Below are positions 1 through 31,070 of a stretch of 64,000 nucleotides of DNA, piece by piece. The position numbers and the translations under genes were made by a program. The DNA comes from a phage. Numbering within the stretch: the stretch's first letter is position 1; every line of letters begins with the position of its first letter. Location of the stretch: sequence record PZ379074.1, one strand, 5' to 3'. The notes beneath the pieces were generated by a model. It worked only from the letters and a program-made list of their open reading frames with translations. It searched no databases and was not told where the DNA came from.

Positions 1-1
1 T

Positions 2-553
2 AGCAGCCTTACGTTCTGCGATGGCTTTGCGACGTTCTTCAGCTTCTTTCTTACGCTGTTCTTTCTGCTGTTCTGCAGCTTCTTTCGCCGCAATCTTAGC
101 AGCTTCACGCTCTGCCTTGCGTTTCGCTTTAGCTTCTTCTTTGGCCTTCTCTTTTTCGGCCTTCGCTGCAGCACGGGCTTGATCACGCTCAGCTTTCTTG
201 GCCGCAGCCTGCTCAGCTTTCAGGCGCTTGGCTTCTTCTTTAGCCTTTGCCTTTTCGATTTCTTTTGCTGCTTTAGCGGCTTCACGCTCTGCCTTCTTAG
301 CAGCAGCCTTTTCTGCACGCTCTTTAGCTTTCTTAGCTGCTTCTTCAGCACGCTTCTGAGCCTTCTCATCAGCAGCTTGCTTGCGTTTCAGCGCAGCTTC
401 TTCACGCTTGGCTTGTTTTTCCTGCTCACGCTTCTGGCGTTTTTCTTCGGCTTCTTTCTTTTTAGCCAGGCGTTTTTCTTCAGCCACGCGACGACGTTCT
501 GCTGCAGCTGCTTGTTTTTCTTCTTTAGATAATACTTTGATTGCTTCGGCCAT
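2..553 (-). CDS. Partial CDS (N-terminal part in window, runs off the left edge): Lys/Ala/Glu-rich low-complexity coiled-coil protein
   Basis: Minus-strand ATG at 553 preceded by AAGGA; frame checked open codon by codon to position 2; translation begins MAEAIKVLSKEEKQAAAAERRRVAEEKRLAKKKEAEE; absent from ORF track because there is no stop in the window. Confidence 0.5.
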   Translation of the reverse strand, partial: MAEAIKVLSKEEKQAAAAERRRVAEEKRLAKKKEAEEKRQKREQEKQAKREEAALKRKQAADEKAQKRAEEAAKKAKERAEKAAAKKAEREAAKAAKEIEKAKAKEEAKRLKAEQAAAKKAERDQARAAAKAEKEKAKEEAKAKRKAEREAAKIAAKEAAEQQKEQRKKEAEERRKAIAERKAA

Positions 554-712
554 ATTCACAGTCCTTAAATAAATTAGTTTATTTTATATTCCCCGTTTGG
601 GATAACTTAATTATGCCTTCAGTTGCCGCCAGTAGCAACTAAAAACTATGGCGGCAATGCCACTTTAATTAAACTGATTTTCAGTTTTATTTTTCGTAAA
701 TTTACGTCAACA

Positions 713-1897
713 TTAACGCGCTTTCAAATCACGGTACACGGTCAGATTCTTCTTGGCACGGGTGATAGCGGTGTACATCATCTTGGAGTACGGAACGCCG
801 CGCAAGATTTCTTCCAGCACGCACACATTATCCCACTCGCTGCCTTGCGATTTGTGCACCGTGATTACATAGCCATAGTCCATGCCTCCAACAGCGCGTT
901 GGGCCTCTTTGCGCACTTCCTGATCAGTAGAGAAGGAAAGAGGATTAATCTTAACCTTTATATCTTTACCATCAGTCAATGAACGCAAGTTGACATACAT
1001 TATTTCATTCGACTCATCTTCATCCCTTTCAAAGTCCGGCACTGGCTCATAGCTAATAACAATCCCTTGCTCGCCATTACAGAATCCTGGCCCGTGTTGG
1101 TTGAAGGTGCAAATAACCTTCTCACCGATTCCTGGCATTGGCGTTATACGTCCGCTCACTTGCCGTAATAATGAATTCCATTTATCTTTGGTGCTATTAT
1201 AGGAGCAAATAATTTGATCATCTTCGCCCATGAATTTCTTTAACGCAGTAACGCGCGGCGATTCTGCCAATACTTTGACGTCATCGTATTCACGCGGAGG
1301 AAGTCGGTTGCCTTGGCGCACGAAGAAGGAGGCACGGATGATGTTGGACTCTTTCCCCTGCCGCATGATTTCTGTTAACAGAACGTCAACAGCTTCTTCA
1401 GTAAAGTAGGCGGCGGCTTTTACCGGAGGGACTTGTCCAATGTCGCCTAATGCCAGCACAGGGATGCGGTGATCAAGAAGACGCTCTGTGTCCCACTCGC
1501 CAACCATCGACGCTTCATCGAGTACAACAAGGTGCGGCCTTTCATCCAGCTTTGACTTTCTCGAAAAGATTGGCTTATTGTCGTCATTCACGCCGCGCAC
1601 GTTATAGATGAACTGGTGAAGGGTCTTAGCGCCACGACAGCCTTTTTGCTTTAATCGGCTTGCAGCCTTTCCGGTCGGCGCAATATAGATAGCGCCGTAC
1701 TCACCGACACATCGGCGCACAATCTCGCGAGCAATAGAGGTTTTACCAGTCCCTGCATAGCCAGCAATGAAAAACACGCGCTTCGTCGTTTTACCGTCCT
1801 GCAATCGCTTGTACCATGCAACGGCCTTCTCGATGGCATCGATTTGTTGCGCGTTAAACTGAATCACTGGCTCATCATTAAATTCTGGAATGTTCAT
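713..1897 (-). CDS. SF1 DNA helicase, Dda/RecD-like
   Basis: 394-aa ORF; Walker A GYAGTGKTS, Walker B VVLDEASMV, C-terminal SF1 helicase motifs (VHKSQGSEWD). Confidence 0.85.
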   Translation of the reverse strand: MNIPEFNDEPVIQFNAQQIDAIEKAVAWYKRLQDGKTTKRVFFIAGYAGTGKTSIAREIVRRCVGEYGAIYIAPTGKAASRLKQKGCRGAKTLHQFIYNVRGVNDDNKPIFSRKSKLDERPHLVVLDEASMVGEWDTERLLDHRIPVLALGDIGQVPPVKAAAYFTEEAVDVLLTEIMRQGKESNIIRASFFVRQGNRLPPREYDDVKVLAESPRVTALKKFMGEDDQIICSYNSTKDKWNSLLRQVSGRITPMPGIGEKVICTFNQHGPGFCNGEQGIVISYEPVPDFERDEDESNEIMYVNLRSLTDGKDIKVKINPLSFSTDQEVRKEAQRAVGGMDYGYVITVHKSQGSEWDNVCVLEEILRGVPYSKMMYTAITRAKKNLTVYRDLKAR

Positions 1898-2223
1898 TAT
1901 AACTCCACTACGCTGTCAAGGTCCAGATATACTGGAATAAAATGGCAATCTTCTTTTCGTTCAAACATCTCACCATCAACATGGCTGAAGAAAACAGTTG
2001 TGTTTGGTATCTTCCATCCTTTCTCGTCGCGCACTAAGTACGCCATGGATTCAACAGGGATGTACAGCGATACCGGATTTGCGGCAAAAATAAATTTGAT
2101 TCTGTCTGGTTGACCCAGGAATCGCATGATTGTTAGGCTTGAATTCAATCTTGTATTAAGGAAGGACTCAACGACTCCGACGTGTGTTGCACGTTCGCGT
2201 TGCTTCGTCTCTTTTTCGTTCAT
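1897..2223 (-). CDS. Hypothetical protein
   Basis: 108-aa ORF with 4-nt start/stop overlap to the downstream helicase gene. Confidence 0.45.
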   Translation of the reverse strand: MNEKETKQRERATHVGVVESFLNTRLNSSLTIMRFLGQPDRIKFIFAANPVSLYIPVESMAYLVRDEKGWKIPNTTVFFSHVDGEMFERKEDCHFIPVYLDLDSVVEL

Positions 2224-2326
2224 TTCAGGCGACCTTTGTTAGTGCGGAAATATTTTCTGATAGTATAATTGCAGATATAGTATAAAGCAAAGTAAATCGA
2301 AATTGTGAACTAAATGGTAAATATTG

Positions 2327-2355
2327 TTGACTTTGTATCACTCAATATTATACTG
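2327..2355 (+). promoter_or_regulatory. Sigma70-like promoter candidate (TTGACT, 16-nt spacer, TATACT)
   Basis: Hexamers read directly in the divergent intergenic region upstream of the 2384 gene. Confidence 0.35.
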
Positions 2356-2383
2356 CAGGTATTGATAACCGAAGGAAAGAAAG

Positions 2384-3466
2384 ATGGCTAGTTTAAGAGA
2401 AGAAGCAAAAATAATCGAAGAGTTTTTAACAGAACTCCAAAGAGGCATTCCAGAAGATGAGCGCGTCATGACGGTGTTTGCGCCTGAAGCAACGGTACAG
2501 ACTGACGAGCGCGGCAAGAAGATTAACAGCAGCTTCTGGCCTAAGCCTTGGAAGTTGGGAAAGCCGCTGATGCAACATCAGAACGGTTACGCCTGCATAA
2601 GTTCAATGCGTAAGTCTCCCAACCCAAAGACGGGTGAGATGCGATACTGGCGTACAGAGTCGGCCTTTGGTCACGGCATGGCGATGATGGTCGACGACAT
2701 CGGTCACGGTAAAGGGTCCAAAGGCGATTTAGATTTGGAATTCTTTTTTGAGCGACTGAAGCCGACTGTCATCGTCGAGACTTCACCGAACAACCACCAG
2801 CTTTGGTACTTCTTTAAAGAACCGATTGACCATCTTATTCAGTTCAAAGCGTTCCTTGGGTCTTTCGTTAACATGGTACTCAAGAAGGGCGGCGACAACA
2901 CGATTAAAGACGTAACGCGCGTGGGCCGTGTTCCTGGGTGCATCAACAACAAGCGTGTGACTCACGACGGCCCCTATAAATATGTCGATGAGAACGGCGA
3001 CCCGTTCCGCTGCCGACTTGTCCATGCGGACTACTCATTGCGCTACACCATCGAAGACATTTGTCAGGCATTTGGCTTTCACGTCGTCATGGCGCAAAAG
3101 CGTGAGATTCAAATTGACGTCGATGAATACAAGTATGATGCTGTTTGGTATAAAATAGCCCAGCAGATTCTATCGCGCAACAAAATGGGTGAAGGGTCTG
3201 ATGGCGACGTCATCGAGAACATGTCAGGCAAGTGCCGCATAATCTGTCCTTGGGGTGAAGAACACACCAACGGCGACCCGTATGGCGCTTACTTTCGCGG
3301 CCCTATTCCTGGTGCAGAACATGAGTTTGTGTTCGGTTGCGCCCACGACTGTCACCGGAAAGGGGAAGGCAAGAAAGGTTGGACTGCTTTTGTTGAAGCA
3401 ATCGTCATGCCTTATATTGAGAATCAACTTGACATGATAAATCGTCGTGCAGGTGGCATAAAATAG
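2384..3466 (+). CDS. Putative primase-polymerase-like replication protein with C-terminal Cys/His cluster
   Basis: 360-aa ORF, RBS AAGGAAAG; MMVDDIGHG (DxD-like) and TSPNNHQLWY motifs; C-terminal CPWGEEH...CAHDCH; function is inference only. Confidence 0.5.
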   Translation: MASLREEAKIIEEFLTELQRGIPEDERVMTVFAPEATVQTDERGKKINSSFWPKPWKLGKPLMQHQNGYACISSMRKSPNPKTGEMRYWRTESAFGHGMAMMVDDIGHGKGSKGDLDLEFFFERLKPTVIVETSPNNHQLWYFFKEPIDHLIQFKAFLGSFVNMVLKKGGDNTIKDVTRVGRVPGCINNKRVTHDGPYKYVDENGDPFRCRLVHADYSLRYTIEDICQAFGFHVVMAQKREIQIDVDEYKYDAVWYKIAQQILSRNKMGEGSDGDVIENMSGKCRIICPWGEEHTNGDPYGAYFRGPIPGAEHEFVFGCAHDCHRKGEGKKGWTAFVEAIVMPYIENQLDMINRRAGGIK

Positions 3467-3524
3467 TTTGCTTTTATTTTCATAGCAACTATAATCATTT
3501 TATGAACTGAAGCAGAGGTGATTC

Positions 3525-3671
3525 ATGCAAAGCGAAGAATTGAACATCGAGGTTGAATGTCTGTTAAAGTCGTTAGAACCTAAACCAGCAGAGCTTCCGA
3601 CCCTTCAAGGAGTCATGGCTCACCATCAAGCGGCTGCGGCCCAACACTACTCTGAATTTGTTAAGGAATAA
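3525..3671 (+). CDS. Small hypothetical protein (48 aa)
   Basis: ATG preceded by GAGGTG; packed between flanking genes; below ORF-track size cutoff. Confidence 0.35.
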   Translation: MQSEELNIEVECLLKSLEPKPAELPTLQGVMAHHQAAAAQHYSEFVKE

Positions 3672-3673
3672 AA

Positions 3674-14363: not shown

Positions 14364-14599
14364 TGAATAAACGAACACCGTTTACGTGTTTTGAAGAATG
14401 GAATGTGTACAATGGGTCGCTTTATGCGGCCTTTTGTTGTTTGGGTCGTGTTTTGCGATGGAATAATTATGAGGTTGTGTTTTATTTATTAATTGTGCGG
14501 AAATATTTAGAAATATATTTCATAGGTCGTGTCTATTGGTCCGTGGTGTTTGTTAGGACTTATCTATGGATTGAAATTTTAGTGTCGTGAAACGTGGTG

Positions 14600-15060
14600 T
14601 TTGAACACATTTGATACGCGTAAAATACGGCTAAAAATTAAGCGTATCATGGCTGCAGGCCGCGCCGTTACTGAGTTCCTATTTTCAAAAGTGGTACACC
14701 CTTACGGATGATACGTCATGGTTTTTTATCCGTATCAGTGTACAGCCCTTGCCGCGCCTGGCCTGTACATTAATCTTACGGATGATACGGATAAAACTGG
14801 GCACCATTATATATATAATTTGAAAAATTAATTAACTCCATTTTAAAAACATTTAAATTATTTTTTTCATATCCTCATACTTATGTTAATTTATATATTT
14901 AACGTATCATCCGTAAGATATAAGTAAAAACAAAGACTTGCGGCAATACGGATGATACGTTATGATACGCTTCGACCAGCCAGCAGCGGCTAAGTCATTG
15001 ATTTGCATAACAAGCAGCGAAAGGGATGGATTTCTTTTATCCGTATCAAACAGTACACCA
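14600..15060. repeat. Iteron-like locus A: inverted and direct copies of CGGATGATACG around an AT-rich core
   Basis: CTTACGGATGATACG at 14701 and 14775; TTATCCGTATCA at 14727 and 15037; inverse copy at 14902; ACGGATGATACGTTATGATACG at 14948; AT-rich core 14808-14900; TACGCGTA at 14614. Confidence 0.6.
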
Positions 15061-15198
15061 CGCACCACGGTCCGTTATCCATTCAGCACTATGATTTGTG
15101 TACGTTTATAGCCATAATGAACATCAATCTGCACTTGAATATAATGTCCATCCATTGTATAATTCACACTATTAATTTGCACTATGGGATTTTGCACT

Positions 15199-15672
15199 AT
15201 GAGTCAAGATTATGTAGCGATGCCTGAAGACTTTGAAGACCCGCGATTTGCAGAGCACAATCAGGCTTTATTCGATGAGTTCATTGACCTTGTTATTCAG
15301 GGCCATGACATGCGCGCAGCTTTTGCACTAGTATTTGGAATGGAAGTTGCAACGGATAACTACACTGGCCAGCGAATCCTTTGCGCGCAACGCAATCCAT
15401 ACTACAAGATGCGCTTCAAAAAGCGTATGGAAGAGATGCCACTCAAGGATTTGTGGAGCGTAAAAGGTGCAATTCACAATTTGGTCAAGCTTGTGCGTGA
15501 TCCAGAAGTCGCGGCGTCAGCCAAACTTAATGCTATTCGTGAACTGAATATCATCTACGGCATCACGATGATTGATGAAAACGGCAATAGTAAAATGGGC
15601 CGTTCCATGGACGATTTCTACAAGGATTTTGGAGAGGCGGCCAAAGAAGGTGAGCAATTCTCCCGCCACTAG
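15199..15672 (+). CDS. Hypothetical protein (157 aa); ATG embedded in an 11-mer copy
   Basis: ORF MSQDYVAMPEDFEDPRF...; no obvious SD; start codon is the ATG of TTTGCACTATG. Confidence 0.45.
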   Translation: MSQDYVAMPEDFEDPRFAEHNQALFDEFIDLVIQGHDMRAAFALVFGMEVATDNYTGQRILCAQRNPYYKMRFKKRMEEMPLKDLWSVKGAIHNLVKLVRDPEVAASAKLNAIRELNIIYGITMIDENGNSKMGRSMDDFYKDFGEAAKEGEQFSRH

Positions 15673-15691
15673 CCAATTTGCACTATAAAAC

Positions 15692-15725
15692 GGCCCTAGA
15701 ACACATTTTCTCCACTTCTAGGGCC
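15692..15725. other. Perfect 10-bp inverted repeat (GGCCCTAGAA / TTCTAGGGCC) with 14-nt loop
   Basis: Read directly; immediately after the 15199..15672 stop and an 11-mer copy; no clear U-tract on plus strand. Confidence 0.4.
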
Positions 15726-16100
15726 ATCGGTAATACGACGGGGAAGGTTACAACCATAAACGCGTTATAAAGTGTATTATTATAAGTCATCTTTTAGTCA
15801 CTTTCCGTAACAATTTACGACCTTCAACCGTCCAATCGAACGACTCCACCAGCAGATTTGCACTATAACCTAAGACTACCCGACCTTTCTCGTTATCGAC
15901 CCGCCAGCAAGTCTCGAATAGCATCTTATTTGCACTATTAACTATCGCCGCAACTCGCGTAGGATAAGCGCAATTTGCACTATGGTCATAAAGGGATAAG
16001 GTGCGACCACTTCCGATGGACAACGTAGCGATGAGAATGAGCGTATTCATAAGCCACCAATTTGCACTATGAAAAGCGACCCCGAAGGGCCGCCATTCTA

Positions 16101-16727
16101 TTAGATAATCTGGAAGGTGTAGGACTTGTTGCCGAACTCAAAGTTCAAGCGCCCAGCTTCCTTAAGCTTCATGCGGAAGCGAATGTGTTTGCTATCCGGC
16201 AAGCCCAGCGCGGCGAACGCTACGCGGACCGATTTGAACTCGCCTACACCCTCGACCATGACACCGTTACGGGTGAGACGCTTTTGCGCCACTTCCTTAT
16301 TATCCCAGCTTTTTGCAATACCTTCGCTATTCGAACGGCGATGGGAAGGAGTTCCATTTTGCACTACGCAATTTGCACTATCGTTTAAACCGCTCTTAAC
16401 GAAGGCTTCATATTCTTCGTCGGTCATCGCGTCGAGTTCTTCCTGGGTCGGCTCAGCCTTTTTAACGACCGCACGCGCCTTATGCGTTTTTACATCGCTG
16501 GACACTTCCTCGCGCGGCTTCGCGTCGGGAATGGGCGATTCGTTGGACGGCTCATCGAGCGCGTTTAAGGACTCGATTAACGCGATTACGCGAGTCTCGG
16601 CGGTCCGGCGGTCCGCGAATTTCTTAATCGGCTTCGAACCGGAATTTGCATTATAAAATGCAACGAGGTCGGCGGTCTTAGTTGCGATAACGTCGCCGCT
16701 AGTAGAAAAGCGATTTAAGCTAACCAT
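16101..16727 (-). CDS. Hypothetical protein; 5-prime half CpG-rich, 3-prime half of ordinary composition
   Basis: 208-aa ORF with minus-strand RBS AGGAG in context CTAGGAGTTTATTATG; contains two 11-mer copies at the composition change. Confidence 0.55.
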   Translation of the reverse strand: MVSLNRFSTSGDVIATKTADLVAFYNANSGSKPIKKFADRRTAETRVIALIESLNALDEPSNESPIPDAKPREEVSSDVKTHKARAVVKKAEPTQEELDAMTDEEYEAFVKSGLNDSANCVVQNGTPSHRRSNSEGIAKSWDNKEVAQKRLTRNGVMVEGVGEFKSVRVAFAALGLPDSKHIRFRMKLKEAGRLNFEFGNKSYTFQII

Positions 16728-16807
16728 AATAAACTCCTATTTGTTAGGGCGCTAGGCGCGAAAGAATTTTATTAAAGCGCCGCGCACGACGCTCTAAAAA
16801 TCCTCTC

Positions 16808-17122
16808 TTACTCTTCGTCGTCTTCGATTAATTCGAGGGCGAAGGCGTAAGCTTTGCTATCGTAATTAACTAAAACGGCGAGTTCGAACTCGTTAATAAA
16901 CGCCGTTTTACCGCATAAATTTAATTCCGCATCGACTTCGAAGAATCCGTTTTCGTCGCGCTCTAAGCGAGAAGCAGCGAGTTGCTCGATTACCGTCGCG
17001 TCGTTAATTTCTTCGCCTAAGCGAACGCCGGAGAATTTAGCGAGAATTTCGCCGTAAGTAAGCGTAACGCCCTGGACTTCGGCGGTTGCGTTTTCGAGGG
17101 TAAAGCGGGTAACGATAGCCAT
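16808..17122 (-). CDS. Small acidic hypothetical protein (104 aa, C-terminus ELIEDDEE)
   Basis: RBS context CTAGGAGTTTATTATG; CpG-rich codon usage. Confidence 0.55.
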   Translation of the reverse strand: MAIVTRFTLENATAEVQGVTLTYGEILAKFSGVRLGEEINDATVIEQLAASRLERDENGFFEVDAELNLCGKTAFINEFELAVLVNYDSKAYAFALELIEDDEE

Positions 17123-17346
17123 AATAAACTCCTAGTTGGGAGAGGCGTTAACGACCTATTCGTTAACTCATCCCGTCCCGATATGAGTACATTATAATAT
17201 AGTGTAGAAAAAAGTAAAGCACTTTTTCGATAAAAATGCGATAAATTATTTTATCTTTTTTCTTTACTTCTTCGTACACTCGCGTATACTTGTTTATATC
17301 GAGACGGGCGATGTCCCTTTCTTCTACTAGCATCGGGAGCTTTATT
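17123..17346. promoter_or_regulatory. Divergent intergenic control region with repeated TTTATATCGAGA(C/G)GGG elements and TATAAT-like hexamer
   Basis: CTTTACTTCTTCGTACACT plus TTTATATCGAGA repeated at 17255-17300 and 17660-17700; inverted copies of AAAGTAAAGCACTTTTTCG at 17212 and 17648. Confidence 0.4.
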
Positions 17347-17649
17347 ATGACTACTTTAATCTCTTCCATCCTTACTTACGACGAAGACCGCTTAACCGTT
17401 CGCTCTCTTATCGCCGCCGTTAACGCGGAACTAGAATCTAGCGCCATTAAGGTCCGCGCGGTCGCCTTCATCGGCCTTTCCTTCGACGATATGAAGTATG
17501 CCGAACGTAGCGCTATCCGCTTCGCGAAGACCGACGACGAAGCCGTTACCCTTATCGAGACGGTTACGCCGCGCGACGAAGCGTTAATTATCGTCGAGTA
17601 TATCGACGTAGAAGGCGATAAGGCTTATAAATATTTTATCGCAGAATAA
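17347..17649 (+). CDS. Small acidic hypothetical protein (100 aa)
   Basis: ATG at 17347 after GGGAGCTTTATT; CpG-rich. Confidence 0.55.
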   Translation: MTTLISSILTYDEDRLTVRSLIAAVNAELESSAIKVRAVAFIGLSFDDMKYAERSAIRFAKTDDEAVTLIETVTPRDEALIIVEYIDVEGDKAYKYFIAE

Positions 17650-17756
17650 CGAAAAAGTGCTTTACTTCTTCGTACACTAAGACTATAATGTTTTATATCG
17701 AGAGGGGATGAGGTAGCGAATAGGTCGCTACCCTCCCGACCAACTAGGAGATTATT

Positions 17757-18047
17757 ATGATTACTTTAGCCGCTATCCGTAACGCTCGCGCCGAAACTTC
17801 CGAAAACTCTAACGTATTTGGCGAAAAACTTAAAAACGTTTATCTCTTTAACGTAGATGCGACTATCGAGGAGCTTCATAGTCCTATCGATTTTAGCGAA
17901 TTTACGGAACTCGAAGAGGAAGATATTTCTACTTTCCGCGTTACTATCGAAGGCAAGGTTTATTTTGCTACGGAGTTCGGCGGCGAATATCTCGCGGTAT
18001 CCGAAGGCGAAGGCCGTTACTCTTTCTTTAAAATCGTCTCCTTATAA
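17757..18047 (+). CDS. Small acidic hypothetical protein (96 aa)
   Basis: RBS context CTAGGAGATTATTATG preceded by hairpin GTAGCGAATAGGTCGCTAC. Confidence 0.55.
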   Translation: MITLAAIRNARAETSENSNVFGEKLKNVYLFNVDATIEELHSPIDFSEFTELEEEDISTFRVTIEGKVYFATEFGGEYLAVSEGEGRYSFFKIVSL

Positions 18048-18049
18048 TA

Positions 18050-18758
18050 CCCTTCCGTTACTAATAGGCCGCGCTTAGTCGCGGCTTTTCTTCGTCCCTA
18101 TCCCGATGCGCGTCTACGCGAAAACTCCTTTATCCTTCCCTTCGTCGTCGCATAATCTTCTTCGAGATGCTCCTTAGTTCGCATAACAGGTATTACGTTA
18201 AATGGAGAACATCGCGTAAGTCCTTGTTTTATATAGACACCTATATCGGACCGTTAGGGCGGGTCGCGTAAGTCGTTGTTTTATAAAGGCGCAAAACTTT
18301 CCCTTCGTTCCGAACTAAAACGAGGAATATGCCGACCCTTCGTCCGAAAATAGTATGCATGCGAAATTACATGCATCTAGAATAATCCCCACCGATATTA
18401 TCCTACACGCAATCATTCGCTTTCGAATCATTATGCTTCATATTATTATGCATCGAATCATTCTCTTTCGAATTGTAACGCTGGAAACTGTAACGGCGAT
18501 TGATTATTGCGTTCGTGTGGTTTTTAGGGCATGGGTCTTTTGGTGCGTTTTGCTACTTGATGAAATTTGCGGTACACTAATCAAAATACGACACATTTGG
18601 TCCACTAACTTTTCAAAGAAAAAGTCCTAGACAGTACCGTACTATTTTGCACCCACAGGAAATTTGCAGTACACTCCTGCGCGGCAGGCAAAATAAAGGG
18701 CCGCACTAAGCGACCCACTAAGCGACCCACGATTCACGGTTAAAGCAACATCCACCCA
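18050..18758. repeat. About 700 bp without a convincing ORF, rich in short direct repeats
   Basis: CGCGTAAGTCNTTGTTTTATA x2 (18216, 18267); CGAATCATT x3 (18420-18470); TGTAACG x2; ATTTGC(A/G)GTACACT x2 (18563, 18662); ACTAAGCGACCC x2 (18705-18730). Confidence 0.4.
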
Positions 18759-19139
18759 CTATTCACTCTTATGGGCATCACCAAAGCCATCCGCAATCTG
18801 GCTGATCAATGATTCAATGGACACAGTTTTACCAATTGATCGAGCGGTAATAGCAAGCATATTATCAATCAAACCACGATTGACTGCATATGTTCCAGGT
18901 TTTGACTCATCTTCAGAACAACCAAAAAGCTGGTCGCGCAGACTTTCAAGAGAACGCTCAATATTTTCCAACTTCTCTTCTAAATCGGATTGGCGACGTA
19001 AAACCCATGTCAAGTCACGGTTGCCAACTTCCAATCCATCAGAATAGCAAGGTGGAGCGTCAATTTTGATGCTGGAACCAAAAGCAATGCCGCTGCCTTT
19101 AGTATGTGTGTGGCTCATAGAATCATTTTTATTTGACAT
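18759..19139 (-). CDS. Hypothetical protein
   Basis: Start taken at internal ATG 19139 (MSNKND...) with AAAGGTAA upstream; track ORF extends to 19205. Confidence 0.5.
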   Translation of the reverse strand: MSNKNDSMSHTHTKGSGIAFGSSIKIDAPPCYSDGLEVGNRDLTWVLRRQSDLEEKLENIERSLESLRDQLFGCSEDESKPGTYAVNRGLIDNMLAITARSIGKTVSIESLISQIADGFGDAHKSE

Positions 19140-24074: not shown

Positions 24075-25535
24075 ATGAATAAAATATTAACACATAATTG
24101 GAAAGTCATGTACCAGTTGAATCCTGCTTTAAGAGAAGTCTGGAAGACGAAGGCGCGATACAAAGTTATATACGGCGGTCGTGCATCTTCCAAATCGCAT
24201 GATGCCGCTGGTTTTGCTATTTATTTGGCGGCAAACTTTAAATTAAAATTCCTTTGCGTTCGACAATTCCAGAACAAGATTTCTGAATCAGTATATACGC
24301 TATTAAAAGACAAAATAGAAATTTCTGATTTCAAAGACGAGTTCAACTTATTAAAGAACTCTATTGAACACAAAAGAACAAAATCTGAATTTTTATTTTA
24401 CGGTATCGCACGCAACGTTGACGAAATCAAATCAACAGAAGGTGTTGATGTTCTTTGGCTTGAAGAAGCGCATGCACTGACTGAAGAGCAATGGGACATT
24501 ATTGAGCCGACAATTCGTAAGGAAGGGTCCGAAATATGGATCATATTTAACCCTGATGAAGAGGCTGATTTCGTCTACCAGAACTTTGTCATGCGACCGC
24601 CGAAAAATGCCATCGTTAAGAAGATTAACTGGCAGGACAATCCATTCTTGTCGCAAACAATGCTGGATGTTATCGCTGGCATGTATGAGCGCGACCCGAA
24701 AAAGGCAGAACACGTTTATGGCGGAGTGCCGAAGACAGGCGGCGATAAGTCGGTCATCAACCGTGCATTCGTCAAAGCCGCGCTAAACCTCCACAAACAC
24801 CCTACGCTGGGATGGAGCTTGTCAGGGTCTAACCGTATAGGCTTCGACGTGGCGGACGACGGCGACGACTTAAACGCCACAGCATTTGTCACAGGCAACG
24901 TATTACGTGGCATCAAGACATGGGAAGGTCTGGAAGATGAATTGCTTAAGTCCGCAAGCGGAGTTTGGAAAGACGCATTGACATTCGGCGCGTCAATTAC
25001 CTATGACGCCATCGGTGTCGGTGCATTTGCTGGTTCAAAATTTGATGAGCTCAATGAGTATGCAATACATGAAAATCCAACATTCCCAAGAATCGAATTT
25101 AATGCGTTCAACGCGCAAGGTGCTGTTGATGATCCTGATGACGTTTTCCTTGAGTTACCACACGTTGAAATACTCAATAAAGACCATTTCGCAAACATAA
25201 AAGCGCAAAAATGGACTGAGATTGCCGAACGATTCAGAAAGACATATGAGTATGCGACAGGGCAAGCCGCATATCCGACCGATGAGTTGATTTCCATCGA
25301 CACAGACGGCATTCCAGAACTTGGGATTCCTGCTTGGTCTGCGGAAGAAATTGAGACGTTTCTTTTTGAGATGTCAGCGCCGCGCAAAGACACGTCTGTT
25401 CTTGGTAAGTTCAAAGTTGAATCGAAAAAGGATATGGCAAAGCGTGGAGTTAAATCGCCTAACAAAGCGGACGCCGCAATCATGGCATTGATGAAACCAA
25501 TTGTTGCAGCATCCGGCTTCTTCTCTAACCTTTAA
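24075..25535 (+). CDS. terL: Terminase large subunit
   Basis: 486-aa ORF; Walker A-like GGRASSKS near N-terminus, acidic nuclease-type C-terminal half; first in the morphogenesis module. Confidence 0.8.
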   Translation: MNKILTHNWKVMYQLNPALREVWKTKARYKVIYGGRASSKSHDAAGFAIYLAANFKLKFLCVRQFQNKISESVYTLLKDKIEISDFKDEFNLLKNSIEHKRTKSEFLFYGIARNVDEIKSTEGVDVLWLEEAHALTEEQWDIIEPTIRKEGSEIWIIFNPDEEADFVYQNFVMRPPKNAIVKKINWQDNPFLSQTMLDVIAGMYERDPKKAEHVYGGVPKTGGDKSVINRAFVKAALNLHKHPTLGWSLSGSNRIGFDVADDGDDLNATAFVTGNVLRGIKTWEGLEDELLKSASGVWKDALTFGASITYDAIGVGAFAGSKFDELNEYAIHENPTFPRIEFNAFNAQGAVDDPDDVFLELPHVEILNKDHFANIKAQKWTEIAERFRKTYEYATGQAAYPTDELISIDTDGIPELGIPAWSAEEIETFLFEMSAPRKDTSVLGKFKVESKKDMAKRGVKSPNKADAAIMALMKPIVAASGFFSNL

Positions 25536-30510: not shown

Positions 30511-30520
30511 AGAGGAAGTT

Positions 30521-30658
30521 ATGCAAAAGATTATTCAGTCACGTTACGTTAAAGTGCGAAATATTAATTGCAACTCTTTGCTTTCTTGGAAATGGGCTGT
30601 TTACGACTCGATGCTGATTGGCGTTTTAGTTGCTGGAGTGCTTTTTAATATTCACTGA
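30521..30658 (+). CDS. Small hydrophobic peptide (45 aa)
   Basis: RBS AGAGGAAG; C-terminal MLIGVLVAGVLF; below ORF-track cutoff. Confidence 0.35.
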   Translation: MQKIIQSRYVKVRNINCNSLLSWKWAVYDSMLIGVLVAGVLFNIH

Positions 30659-30689
30659 ATCGCCTGGCAATGGATTGCCGCAGGATTTT

Positions 30690-30975
30690 ACGCGTATAAT
30701 GACGTATCATCCGTATCAAGTAAGTAGTTGTTTTCAAAAGAATCTTACGGATGATACGGATGATACGCGTTGCCGCGATACTTTATAAGAGTTTATAAAA
30801 AAATAAAATTATATATCTAATTTAATTTTATTTTTTTATAAACTCTTATATATGAAAAGTATCCGTATCATCCGTATCATCCGTAGCACACCAGTGATAG
30901 CGCGGCTTATACACCGATACGGATAAAAATACACCTCATTTTATCCGTATCATCCGTATCACACTAATTAAGGCG
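30690..30975. repeat. Iteron-like locus B: tandem and inverted CGGATGATACG copies flanking a 60-bp AT-rich palindrome
   Basis: CTTACGGATGATACGGATGATACG at 30744; ATCCGTATCATCCGTATCATCCG at 30861; TTATCCGTATCATCCGTATCA at 30951; AT palindrome 30783-30850; TACGCGTA at 30689. Confidence 0.6.
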
Positions 30976-31070
30976 CGGCTATATCGGTTGTTATACATAT
31001 TCAAACCATAATTATTGTTTGCCTAAGTTTTTTTCATTAGATATAATACACAATACTTATTTGAGGGTGG

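Follow-up and report, generated by a model that had tools for sequence, protein, structure and literature searches.

Positions 18,050 to 18,758 of a 64,000-nucleotide (nt) window of phage DNA (sequence record PZ379074.1; "the window" denotes this entire length) form a repeat-rich stretch without genes, which we consider to be, rather probably, the cis-acting right junction of a long direct terminal repeat (DTR), that is, a DNA-level signal for terminase end definition and packaging. The evidence comprises the position of the DTR end, placed by homology with related phages, the absence of coding capacity, the transcription terminators at the edges of the stretch, and particular islands within it that are strongly and deeply conserved. 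The DTR and its length are already published and annotated for close relatives; the conserved junction elements, and gene-free conservation that extends down to ~50% identity of the small terminase subunit (TerS), appear to be undescribed in the literature. How the ends of long terminal repeats are marked and cut is poorly understood, even in T5, and an exact end in a gene-free stretch, DNA elements retained at ~50% protein identity, and a terS gene inside the repeat together turn this into a testable problem. Together, these features offer clearly defined sites for mutational and binding studies in E. coli phages for which laboratory hosts have become available (BASEL Bas98-101).

The right end of the direct terminal repeat

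The window is 94-95% identical to the E. coli myophages WFH, WFC and CWP003 of the genus Wifcevirus, and its DNA matches amount to 29 records, all from Wifcevirus; a sensitive blastn search returned the same 29 and none more distant. Among these phages, terminal repeats of ~3.7 kb have been reported for WFC and WFH (PMC6563267), while for Mansfield a 3,673-bp direct terminal repeat was predicted by PhageTerm (PMC6753283) and is carried in its record (MK903282) as repeat_region 1..3673. In the WFC, WFH, SP13, Ro157lw and Mansfield records alike, the opening base corresponds to window position 14840. At the other side, the final base of WFH, of SP13 and of Ro157lw and the end of the Mansfield PhageTerm repeat (3673) converge on the same nucleotide, window position 18540, where the sequence reads ...GGGCATGGGTCTTT / TGGTGCG..., and both repeat copies are present in the WFC, WFH, SP13 and Ro157lw records.

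Because the record ends of the relatives map to 14840 and 18540, the GC-richer "island" of an earlier first-pass annotation, made from the letters alone, can be equated by homology with the DTR. That annotation had the present stretch close the island, which proved apt in that the right end of the DTR falls inside it, although the nature of the island as a terminal repeat went unrecognised. The right end very likely lies within the stretch at 18540/18541, and the junction so placed divides the stretch into 490 nt of repeat and 218 nt beyond it. A practical corollary is that assemblies of such phages should be opened at 14840.

A gene-free stretch between convergent terminators

The gap at 18048-18758 is bounded by two stop codons, those of a 96-aa gene (17757-18047, plus strand) and of a 126-aa gene (19139-18759, minus strand), and it is noncoding, as the first-pass annotation had proposed. 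In comparisons with 18 relatives, no open reading frame (ORF) of at least 20 aa behaves like a coding sequence, nonsynonymous codon differences far exceeding synonymous ones for all of them; the sole long ORF (18355-18630, 91 aa) is intact in none of the 18, and the small ORFs of the gap have no match in Pfam or PHROGs. Hypothetical small ORFs are annotated within the stretch in the Mansfield and kaset records but gain no support from this comparison, and the "hypothetical proteins" called here in some records are probably not genes. The stretch is unusually long for this genome, in line with the earlier remark that so much noncoding DNA is atypical for a phage; the window has just two other large gene-free stretches, at 14364-15183 and 30511-31070.

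Both edges of the stretch carry intrinsic terminators in convergent orientation (Table 1). The plus-strand terminator is annotated independently in the WFC, WFH and Mansfield records, and is 0.88 identical in the distant relative L032 described below. The minus-strand terminator, annotated in WFC and WFH, closes a leftward operon that includes the 126-aa gene and the tail-fibre gene at 22660-20297.

Some relatives have an additional gene nearby. An extra 69-aa gene (PHROG 10377, "transcriptional regulator") is found in F13, SP13, FEC19, Ro157lw and ECML-117 (660-869 in L006) and is absent from the window and from 13 further genomes. It sits, as an insertion, after the 96-aa gene and before the plus-strand terminator (window ~18036-18047), and all ~700 nt of the noncoding stretch are retained downstream of it.

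Conservation within and beyond Wifcevirus

In an alignment of 19 Wifcevirus genomes, from which all identities below are taken unless another sample is named, the mean pairwise identity of the stretch is 0.928, while the flanking genes stand at 0.864 and 0.889, or at 0.79 and 0.84 when third codon positions alone are counted. The first-pass annotation had counted ordinary intergenic conservation in related phages against its own reading; since the stretch is more conserved than the neighbouring genes, this is not what the alignment yields. Conservation is unevenly distributed. Positions 18057-18086 are invariant, the segment 18177-18356 and the repeat-bearing block 18136-18352 both reach 0.95-0.99, the segment around the end (18477-18686) reaches 0.96-0.99, and the core that terminates at the end itself (18474-18540) reaches 0.98-0.99, while the 45-nt repeat and the tandem-repeat tail are variable. 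A six-genome alignment of the whole DTR gives 0.951 for the portion of the stretch inside the repeat, level with the best-conserved DTR genes (0.945-0.957) and well above its immediate neighbours. By the measure of these alignments, the stretch is conserved in the manner of an essential gene and not of a spacer.

A protein search with the DTR-encoded TerS, combined with contig look-ups, extended the comparison to three distant relatives among Logan contigs (L032, L033 and L034), whose TerS proteins are 68%, 51% and 47% identical at the amino acid level; scans of IMG/VR with the neighbouring protein and TerS gave close relatives only. All three share the same layout: terS is followed by two genes on the minus strand and two on the plus strand, then by 508-656 nt in which no gene is called, and finally by minus-strand genes. 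Several islands survive in the alignment of these contigs. The plus-strand terminator is one, and GAATCATT.GCTTTCGAAT units occur in each of the three contigs; L032 has the D3 pair as well; the core ...GTTAGTGTGG...TTT also remains, as does, immediately beyond the end, TTTTGGTACT..GAAAT..ACAC..CAAAA. In L032 the boundary block 18455-18560 (106 nt) is 0.83 identical and includes a 46-nt run with 45 of 46 positions matched, as against 0.68 for the terS gene and 0.53 for the neighbouring gene; L032 also retains the left junction AACTCC/ATTTT, which implies a repeat of 3,295 nt, at 9679-12973 of L032.

A separate observation concerns the contigs themselves. Four short metagenome contigs from Logan with TerS homologues (L033, L034, L035 and the P0006 contig) start 350-520 nt upstream of terS, near the 360 nt that separate terS from the left physical end in Wifcevirus, and one contig measures 3,755 nt, approximately the size of the DTR. 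The breaks in these contigs may track genome ends.

Repeats and sequence elements

The several families of short direct repeats reported earlier were recovered. The longest, D1, consists of two 43-nt copies at a spacing of 45 nt; D2 consists of two 31-nt copies at a spacing of 97 nt; D3 consists of two 25-nt copies that are 92% identical; and the stretch further holds the shorter families D4 to D7, a 15-nt periodic tract and a perfect 12-mer repeated 2.2 times in tandem. Measured as bases lying under recurring k-mers, the repeat coverage of the stretch ranks 11th (k=9) and 9th (k=10) among 1266 genome windows (the top ~1%), and exceeds that of all 300 shuffles.

The 14-mer ATTTGCRGTACACT, noted in two copies in the first-pass annotation, has just two exact copies in the 64 kb, at 18565-18578 and 18662-18675, both of them being the 3' parts of D2. 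Its supposed likeness to the 11-mer array motif of the DTR (TTTGCACTAT) is weak, in that only ATTTGC and ACT are common to the two and TTTGCACTAT has no match with one mismatch or fewer in the stretch. The TTTTGsTACT..GAAAT..ACAC..CAAAA pattern of D2 copy 1 is kept in L032, L033 and L034, while D2 copy 2 is present in 19 of 19 Wifcevirus genomes but absent from L032, and is confined to Wifcevirus proper. The 45-nt duplicated unit matches nowhere else in the 64 kb, and Bas100 lacks exactly one such unit; the GAATCATT.GCTTTCGAAT units are kept in all three distant relatives, with GAATCATT occurring five times in L034. The tandem repeat at ~18700-18735 varies in both unit and copy number, Mansfield carrying a heptamer about six times and most other genomes a single copy. 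The palindrome at 18355-18376 is probably incidental because it is not conserved.

Table 1. Coordinates of the terminal repeat and of the elements in and around its right junction (identities from the 19-genome alignment unless L032 is named).
Feature	Position	Strand	Remarks
Direct terminal repeat (DTR)	14840-18540	unstranded	3701 nt by homology
Intrinsic terminator, plus strand	18066-18092	+	8-bp stem with 6 GC pairs, then T tract; ends rightward DTR operon 17347-18047
TTCCCTTCGT family	18136, 18299; related CCCTTCGTCC at 18336	+	Short direct repeats (block 18136-18352)
D3 pair TCGCGTAAGTCnTTGTTTTATAnAG	18212-18236, 18264-18288	+	Direct repeat; recognisable in L032 too
Palindrome ATGCATGCGAAATTACATGCAT	18355-18376	unstranded	Many relatives read ...CGCATGCGAAATTACCGACATC..., which breaks the palindrome
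45-nt duplicated unit, 15-nt period	18395-18482	+	Two GAATCATTnnCTTTCGAAT units, 18410-18428 and 18455-18473
Conserved core	18474-18540	+	TGTAACG twice, then AAACTGTAACGGCGATTGATTATTGCGTTCGTGTGGTTTTTAGGGCATGGGTCTTT; ends at right genome end
Right DTR boundary	18540/18541	unstranded	...GGGTCTTT / TGGTGCG... (inferred virion DNA end)
D2 copy 1 TTTTGCTACTTGATGAAATTTGCGGTACACT	18548-18578	+	Starts 8 nt outside DTR end; holds first ATTTGCRGTACACT
Conserved block with near-palindrome AGTACCGTACT (18632-18642)	18609-18657	+	Identity 0.96-0.98; ~0.77-0.85 in L032
D2 copy 2 TTTTGCACCCACAGGAAATTTGCAGTACACT	18645-18675	+	Holds second ATTTGCRGTACACT
Intrinsic terminator, minus strand	18716-18698	-	7-bp stem with 6 GC pairs, then TTTATTTT
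Variable tandem repeat CACTAAGCGACC, 2.2 copies	18704-18730	+	Overlaps minus-strand terminator; least conserved part (0.66-0.79)

A putative packaging junction

In DTR phages, the sites on concatemers at which terminase works are fixed, and extension synthesis restores the repeat (PMC5557969). The window encodes both terminase subunits, TerL at 24075-25535 and TerS at 15199-15672, the latter within the DTR and homologous to the solved small terminase of E217 (7UXE, E = 7e-34). On the model that we propose, the convergent terminators would shield ~600 nt from read-through transcription, and the space so protected would hold a conserved noncoding module that acts as duplex DNA and contains the exact right chromosome end. 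Replicating concatemers would carry a single DTR copy between adjacent genomes, and the terminase, composed of TerL and the DTR-encoded TerS, would make one cut at the left edge (14839/14840) and one at the right edge, with the repeat regenerated by synthesis as for other DTR phages. The putative protein-binding sites that position the right-end cut would include the core ending at 18540, the GAATCATT..CTTTCGAAT units located 70-130 nt inside the end, and TTTTGsTACT..GTACAC just outside it. We infer that terminase or an accessory protein binds the conserved islands and thereby directs cutting or duplication of the repeat. In this broad sense, as an array of putative cis-acting DNA sites, the "regulatory array" suggested in the first-pass annotation survives; in any other sense it does not.

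Several observations weigh against this assignment. The end position has been carried over by homology from related records, and the SP13 and Ro157lw ends were taken as deposited. One of the five records, that of WFC (MK373777.1), ends 81 nt further along, at window position 18621, an end that may reflect assembly raggedness or a real second end. Other DTR genes are conserved to a similar degree (0.945-0.957, six genomes), and the segment 18090-18360, which lies far from the end, is highly conserved as well, with no obvious explanation in a cut-site role. No motif beyond chance is common to the neighbourhoods of the left and right cuts (best local score 19, shuffle mean 20.6), so that a single recognition sequence for both cuts is not evident. 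Finally, the small terminase of E217 bound DNA to no appreciable extent in vitro (PMC9611059).

The sister genus Pbunavirus is reported to package by a headful mechanism and to have circularly permuted DNA (PMC12390725). If that report is right, the exact-end elements would be a lineage-specific addition. A bolder proposition, which we regard as doubtful, is that the junction module is a dedicated end-defining device, an array of sites for TerS or a partner that turns a terminase lineage into an exact-end packager of long DTRs; it might also serve as a T5-like gate for stepwise DNA entry. Were either role true, Wifcevirus would be a tractable E. coli model for the measuring and duplication of long terminal repeats.

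Alternative explanations

The high conservation of a long, noncoding stretch would also be expected if it encoded one or more small noncoding RNAs (ncRNAs), as the first-pass annotation had suggested, and by inspection the D2 units can be read as weak -35 and -10 elements (TTTGCn, 18 nt, TACACT). The RNA-level evidence goes the other way: no Rfam family reaches its gathering threshold in the whole window or is usable at permissive thresholds in 17900-18900, and the best sub-threshold match, NsiR4 (17.4 bits against a gathering value of 40), merely overlaps a terminator. The fold z-scores of 18088-18697 (-0.66 and -0.25 for the two strands) are ordinary. When four blocks were folded on both strands with RNAalifold across the 19 genomes, seven of the eight consensus folds lacked any compensatory pair and the other had 2 of 33, with 5-20 pairs broken in each, although the power of consensus folding is low here because substitutions are few. 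A promoter scan finds none on the plus strand in 18480-18700, and a scan for tRNA and tmRNA genes found none. An ncRNA origin of the conservation is therefore quite improbable in our estimation. The further suggestion that the stretch is the remnant of a decayed gene has still less to recommend it. The minus-strand sequence AACTAAGGAG...ATTATG on which it was founded exists (reverse complement of 18150-18178) and offers a Shine-Dalgarno-like AAGGAG together with an ATG, but it is probably a chance occurrence and not a decayed gene start: the spacing from GGAG to ATG is 17 nt, AAGGAG is present in only 6 of the 19 genomes, and the ORF runs 6 codons past the ATG, where an "immediate stop" had been described. 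Conservation above that of intact neighbouring genes is the opposite of what decay would lead one to expect, no ORF shows protein-level constraint or a family match, and no frame-consistent remnant was recovered. Nor can the stretch be the corpse of the 69-aa gene, because genomes that carry that gene, inserted upstream of the plus-strand terminator, keep the noncoding stretch in full, and the relatives with 47-68% TerS identity likewise have no called gene at this location. Gene decay is accordingly extremely improbable.

Two further alternatives accept that the stretch acts as DNA. It might be a control region for T5-like DNA entry: in a two-step injection, the DTR, equipped with early promoters of the host type, would be the first part to enter, and its inner-end repeats would serve as a stop or pause signal that holds the DNA until early proteins had been made. 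The anatomy resembles that of T5 Repeat Region 3 (long and untranslated, mostly within the repeat, overrunning into unique DNA, repeat-rich and conserved above the level of ORFs), and the DTR does carry strong sigma-70-type promoters. However, DnaA boxes (TTWTNCACA) number 0 in 18050-18758 and 4 in the whole window versus 8 expected; apart from TerS, the DTR proteins have no match to an annotated function, and no A1- or A2-like function is seen among them; the literature found reports no two-step injection for Wifcevirus; and conservation peaks exactly at the DTR end, not upstream of it. We regard an entry-control function as unlikely. It is similarly improbable that the stretch is a replication origin or another protein-binding array (of iterons or operators) placed at the DTR edge by coincidence. 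The regular spacing of the direct-repeat families (15, 45, 52 and 97 nt), the AT-richness of the D1 tract and the conservation of the sites as DNA would all suit such an array, but DnaA boxes are again missing from the stretch, the extremes of cumulative GC skew lie elsewhere (2044 and 52709) with no inflection here, no replication gene is adjacent, and between the convergent terminators there is no promoter to regulate beyond weak 9/12 matches. The motifs are also not a genome-wide operator, because they occur only in the stretch.

Two more specific candidates were considered and set aside. ATTTGCRGTACACT as a genome-wide promoter or operator was rejected, there being only two exact copies and relaxed matches occurring at chance level; D2 as a sigma-70 promoter was rejected as unsupported, having been missed by the promoter scan. 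A DNA hairpin at the DTR end was sought as well, and the sequence there proved less structured than its shuffles (z = +1.41).

Other features in and around the DTR

The TTTGCACTAT motif forms an array at 15176-16654, all on the plus strand, with 8 exact and 3 one-mismatch copies, a count reached by none of 100 shuffles. The array spans from just upstream of terS through two minus-strand genes, and because it runs through these genes it would be a DNA-level signal and not a coding one. Mansfield, WFC, WFH, SP13 and Ro157lw have it at unchanged positions, L032 and L033 have it as TGCACTA, and it is a candidate terminase-recognition (pac-like) array. The left DTR junction (14364-15198), with its end at 14839/14840, is likewise long (~830 nt), conserved and gene-free. 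Sites of a further motif, ACGGATGATACG, surround the left end at 14704, 14778 and 14948 on the plus strand and 14903 on the minus strand, and a second ACGGATGATACG cluster lies at 30703-30957, in the gene-free stretch 30511-31070, just upstream of the head maturation protease gene.

Three strong sigma-70-type promoters are located in the DTR (17263-17290 and 17661-17689 on the plus strand, 17218-17191 on the minus strand), and all three have nearly the same 19 nt, CTTTACTTCTTCGTACACT, over the -35 element and spacer, which points to an operator shared by them or to duplication of an early-gene promoter cassette. The minus-strand 104-aa gene at 16808-17122 has a mean pairwise identity of just 0.48 among six genomes that are otherwise ~95% identical, the adjoining spacer standing at 0.71, and looks like a replaceable gene slot in the terminal repeat. 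Elsewhere, short-repeat content in the k-mer scan peaks, for the whole window, at positions 1-250, which include a 15-nt tandem repeat (135-164).

Comparison with known systems

The repeats of Mansfield, WFC and WFH represent the homologous locus, with the boundary at the same nucleotide except for the WFC record end at 18621; their records and papers give the repeat length only. Beyond this group, the closest described analogue, as far as layout permits a comparison, is the untranslated Repeat Region 3 of T5, of which the present stretch is not a member. Repeat Region 3 lies for the most part in the left terminal repeat, from which it extends 270 bp into unique DNA, and contains many direct and inverted repeats; it is more conserved than the ORFs of the repeat and is thought to hold the injection stop signal, iss (bioRxiv 10.1101/866236). 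Both regions are thus long untranslated stretches situated mostly inside a long DTR, with overruns of 270 bp in T5 and 218 nt here, both are conserved above their surroundings (the adjoining repeat ORFs in T5; the flanking genes here, 0.93 versus 0.86 and 0.89), and both DTRs carry early genes with host-type promoters. The differences are considerable: the stretch measures 0.7 kb here versus 1.2-1.66 kb in T5 and the DTR 3.7 kb versus ~10 kb; DnaA boxes, which in T5 are paired in conserved inverted repeats, are lacking here; no sequence similarity is detectable and no A1/A2-type genes are recognised; and the phage is a myovirus of the Lindbergviridae, not a Tequintavirus.

In T7 and T3, the terminal repeat at the concatemer junction is flanked by arrays of short repeats, and pac signals are provided for terminase; the details of the T7 junction were reportedly laid out by Dunn and Studier in 1983 and in work by Fujisawa and Hinkle. 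The resemblance to the present system is that exact, sequence-defined ends yield a DTR from concatemers, that short direct repeats lie by the boundary, and that the left and right ends differ. Here, however, the DTR is ~20 times longer and bears genes, including terS, the end has no hairpin potential, no promoter for a phage RNA polymerase is known, and in detail the two terminases are unrelated. In the cos region of lambda, arranged as cosQ-cosN-cosB, the cut site is flanked by R sites to which TerS binds. Lambda has 12-nt cohesive ends, in contrast to a 3.7-kb terminal redundancy here with cuts 3.7 kb apart, and no sequence resemblance exists; what the two have in common is a fixed cut site with short repeated sites, putative in the present case, flanking it in a gene-free stretch.

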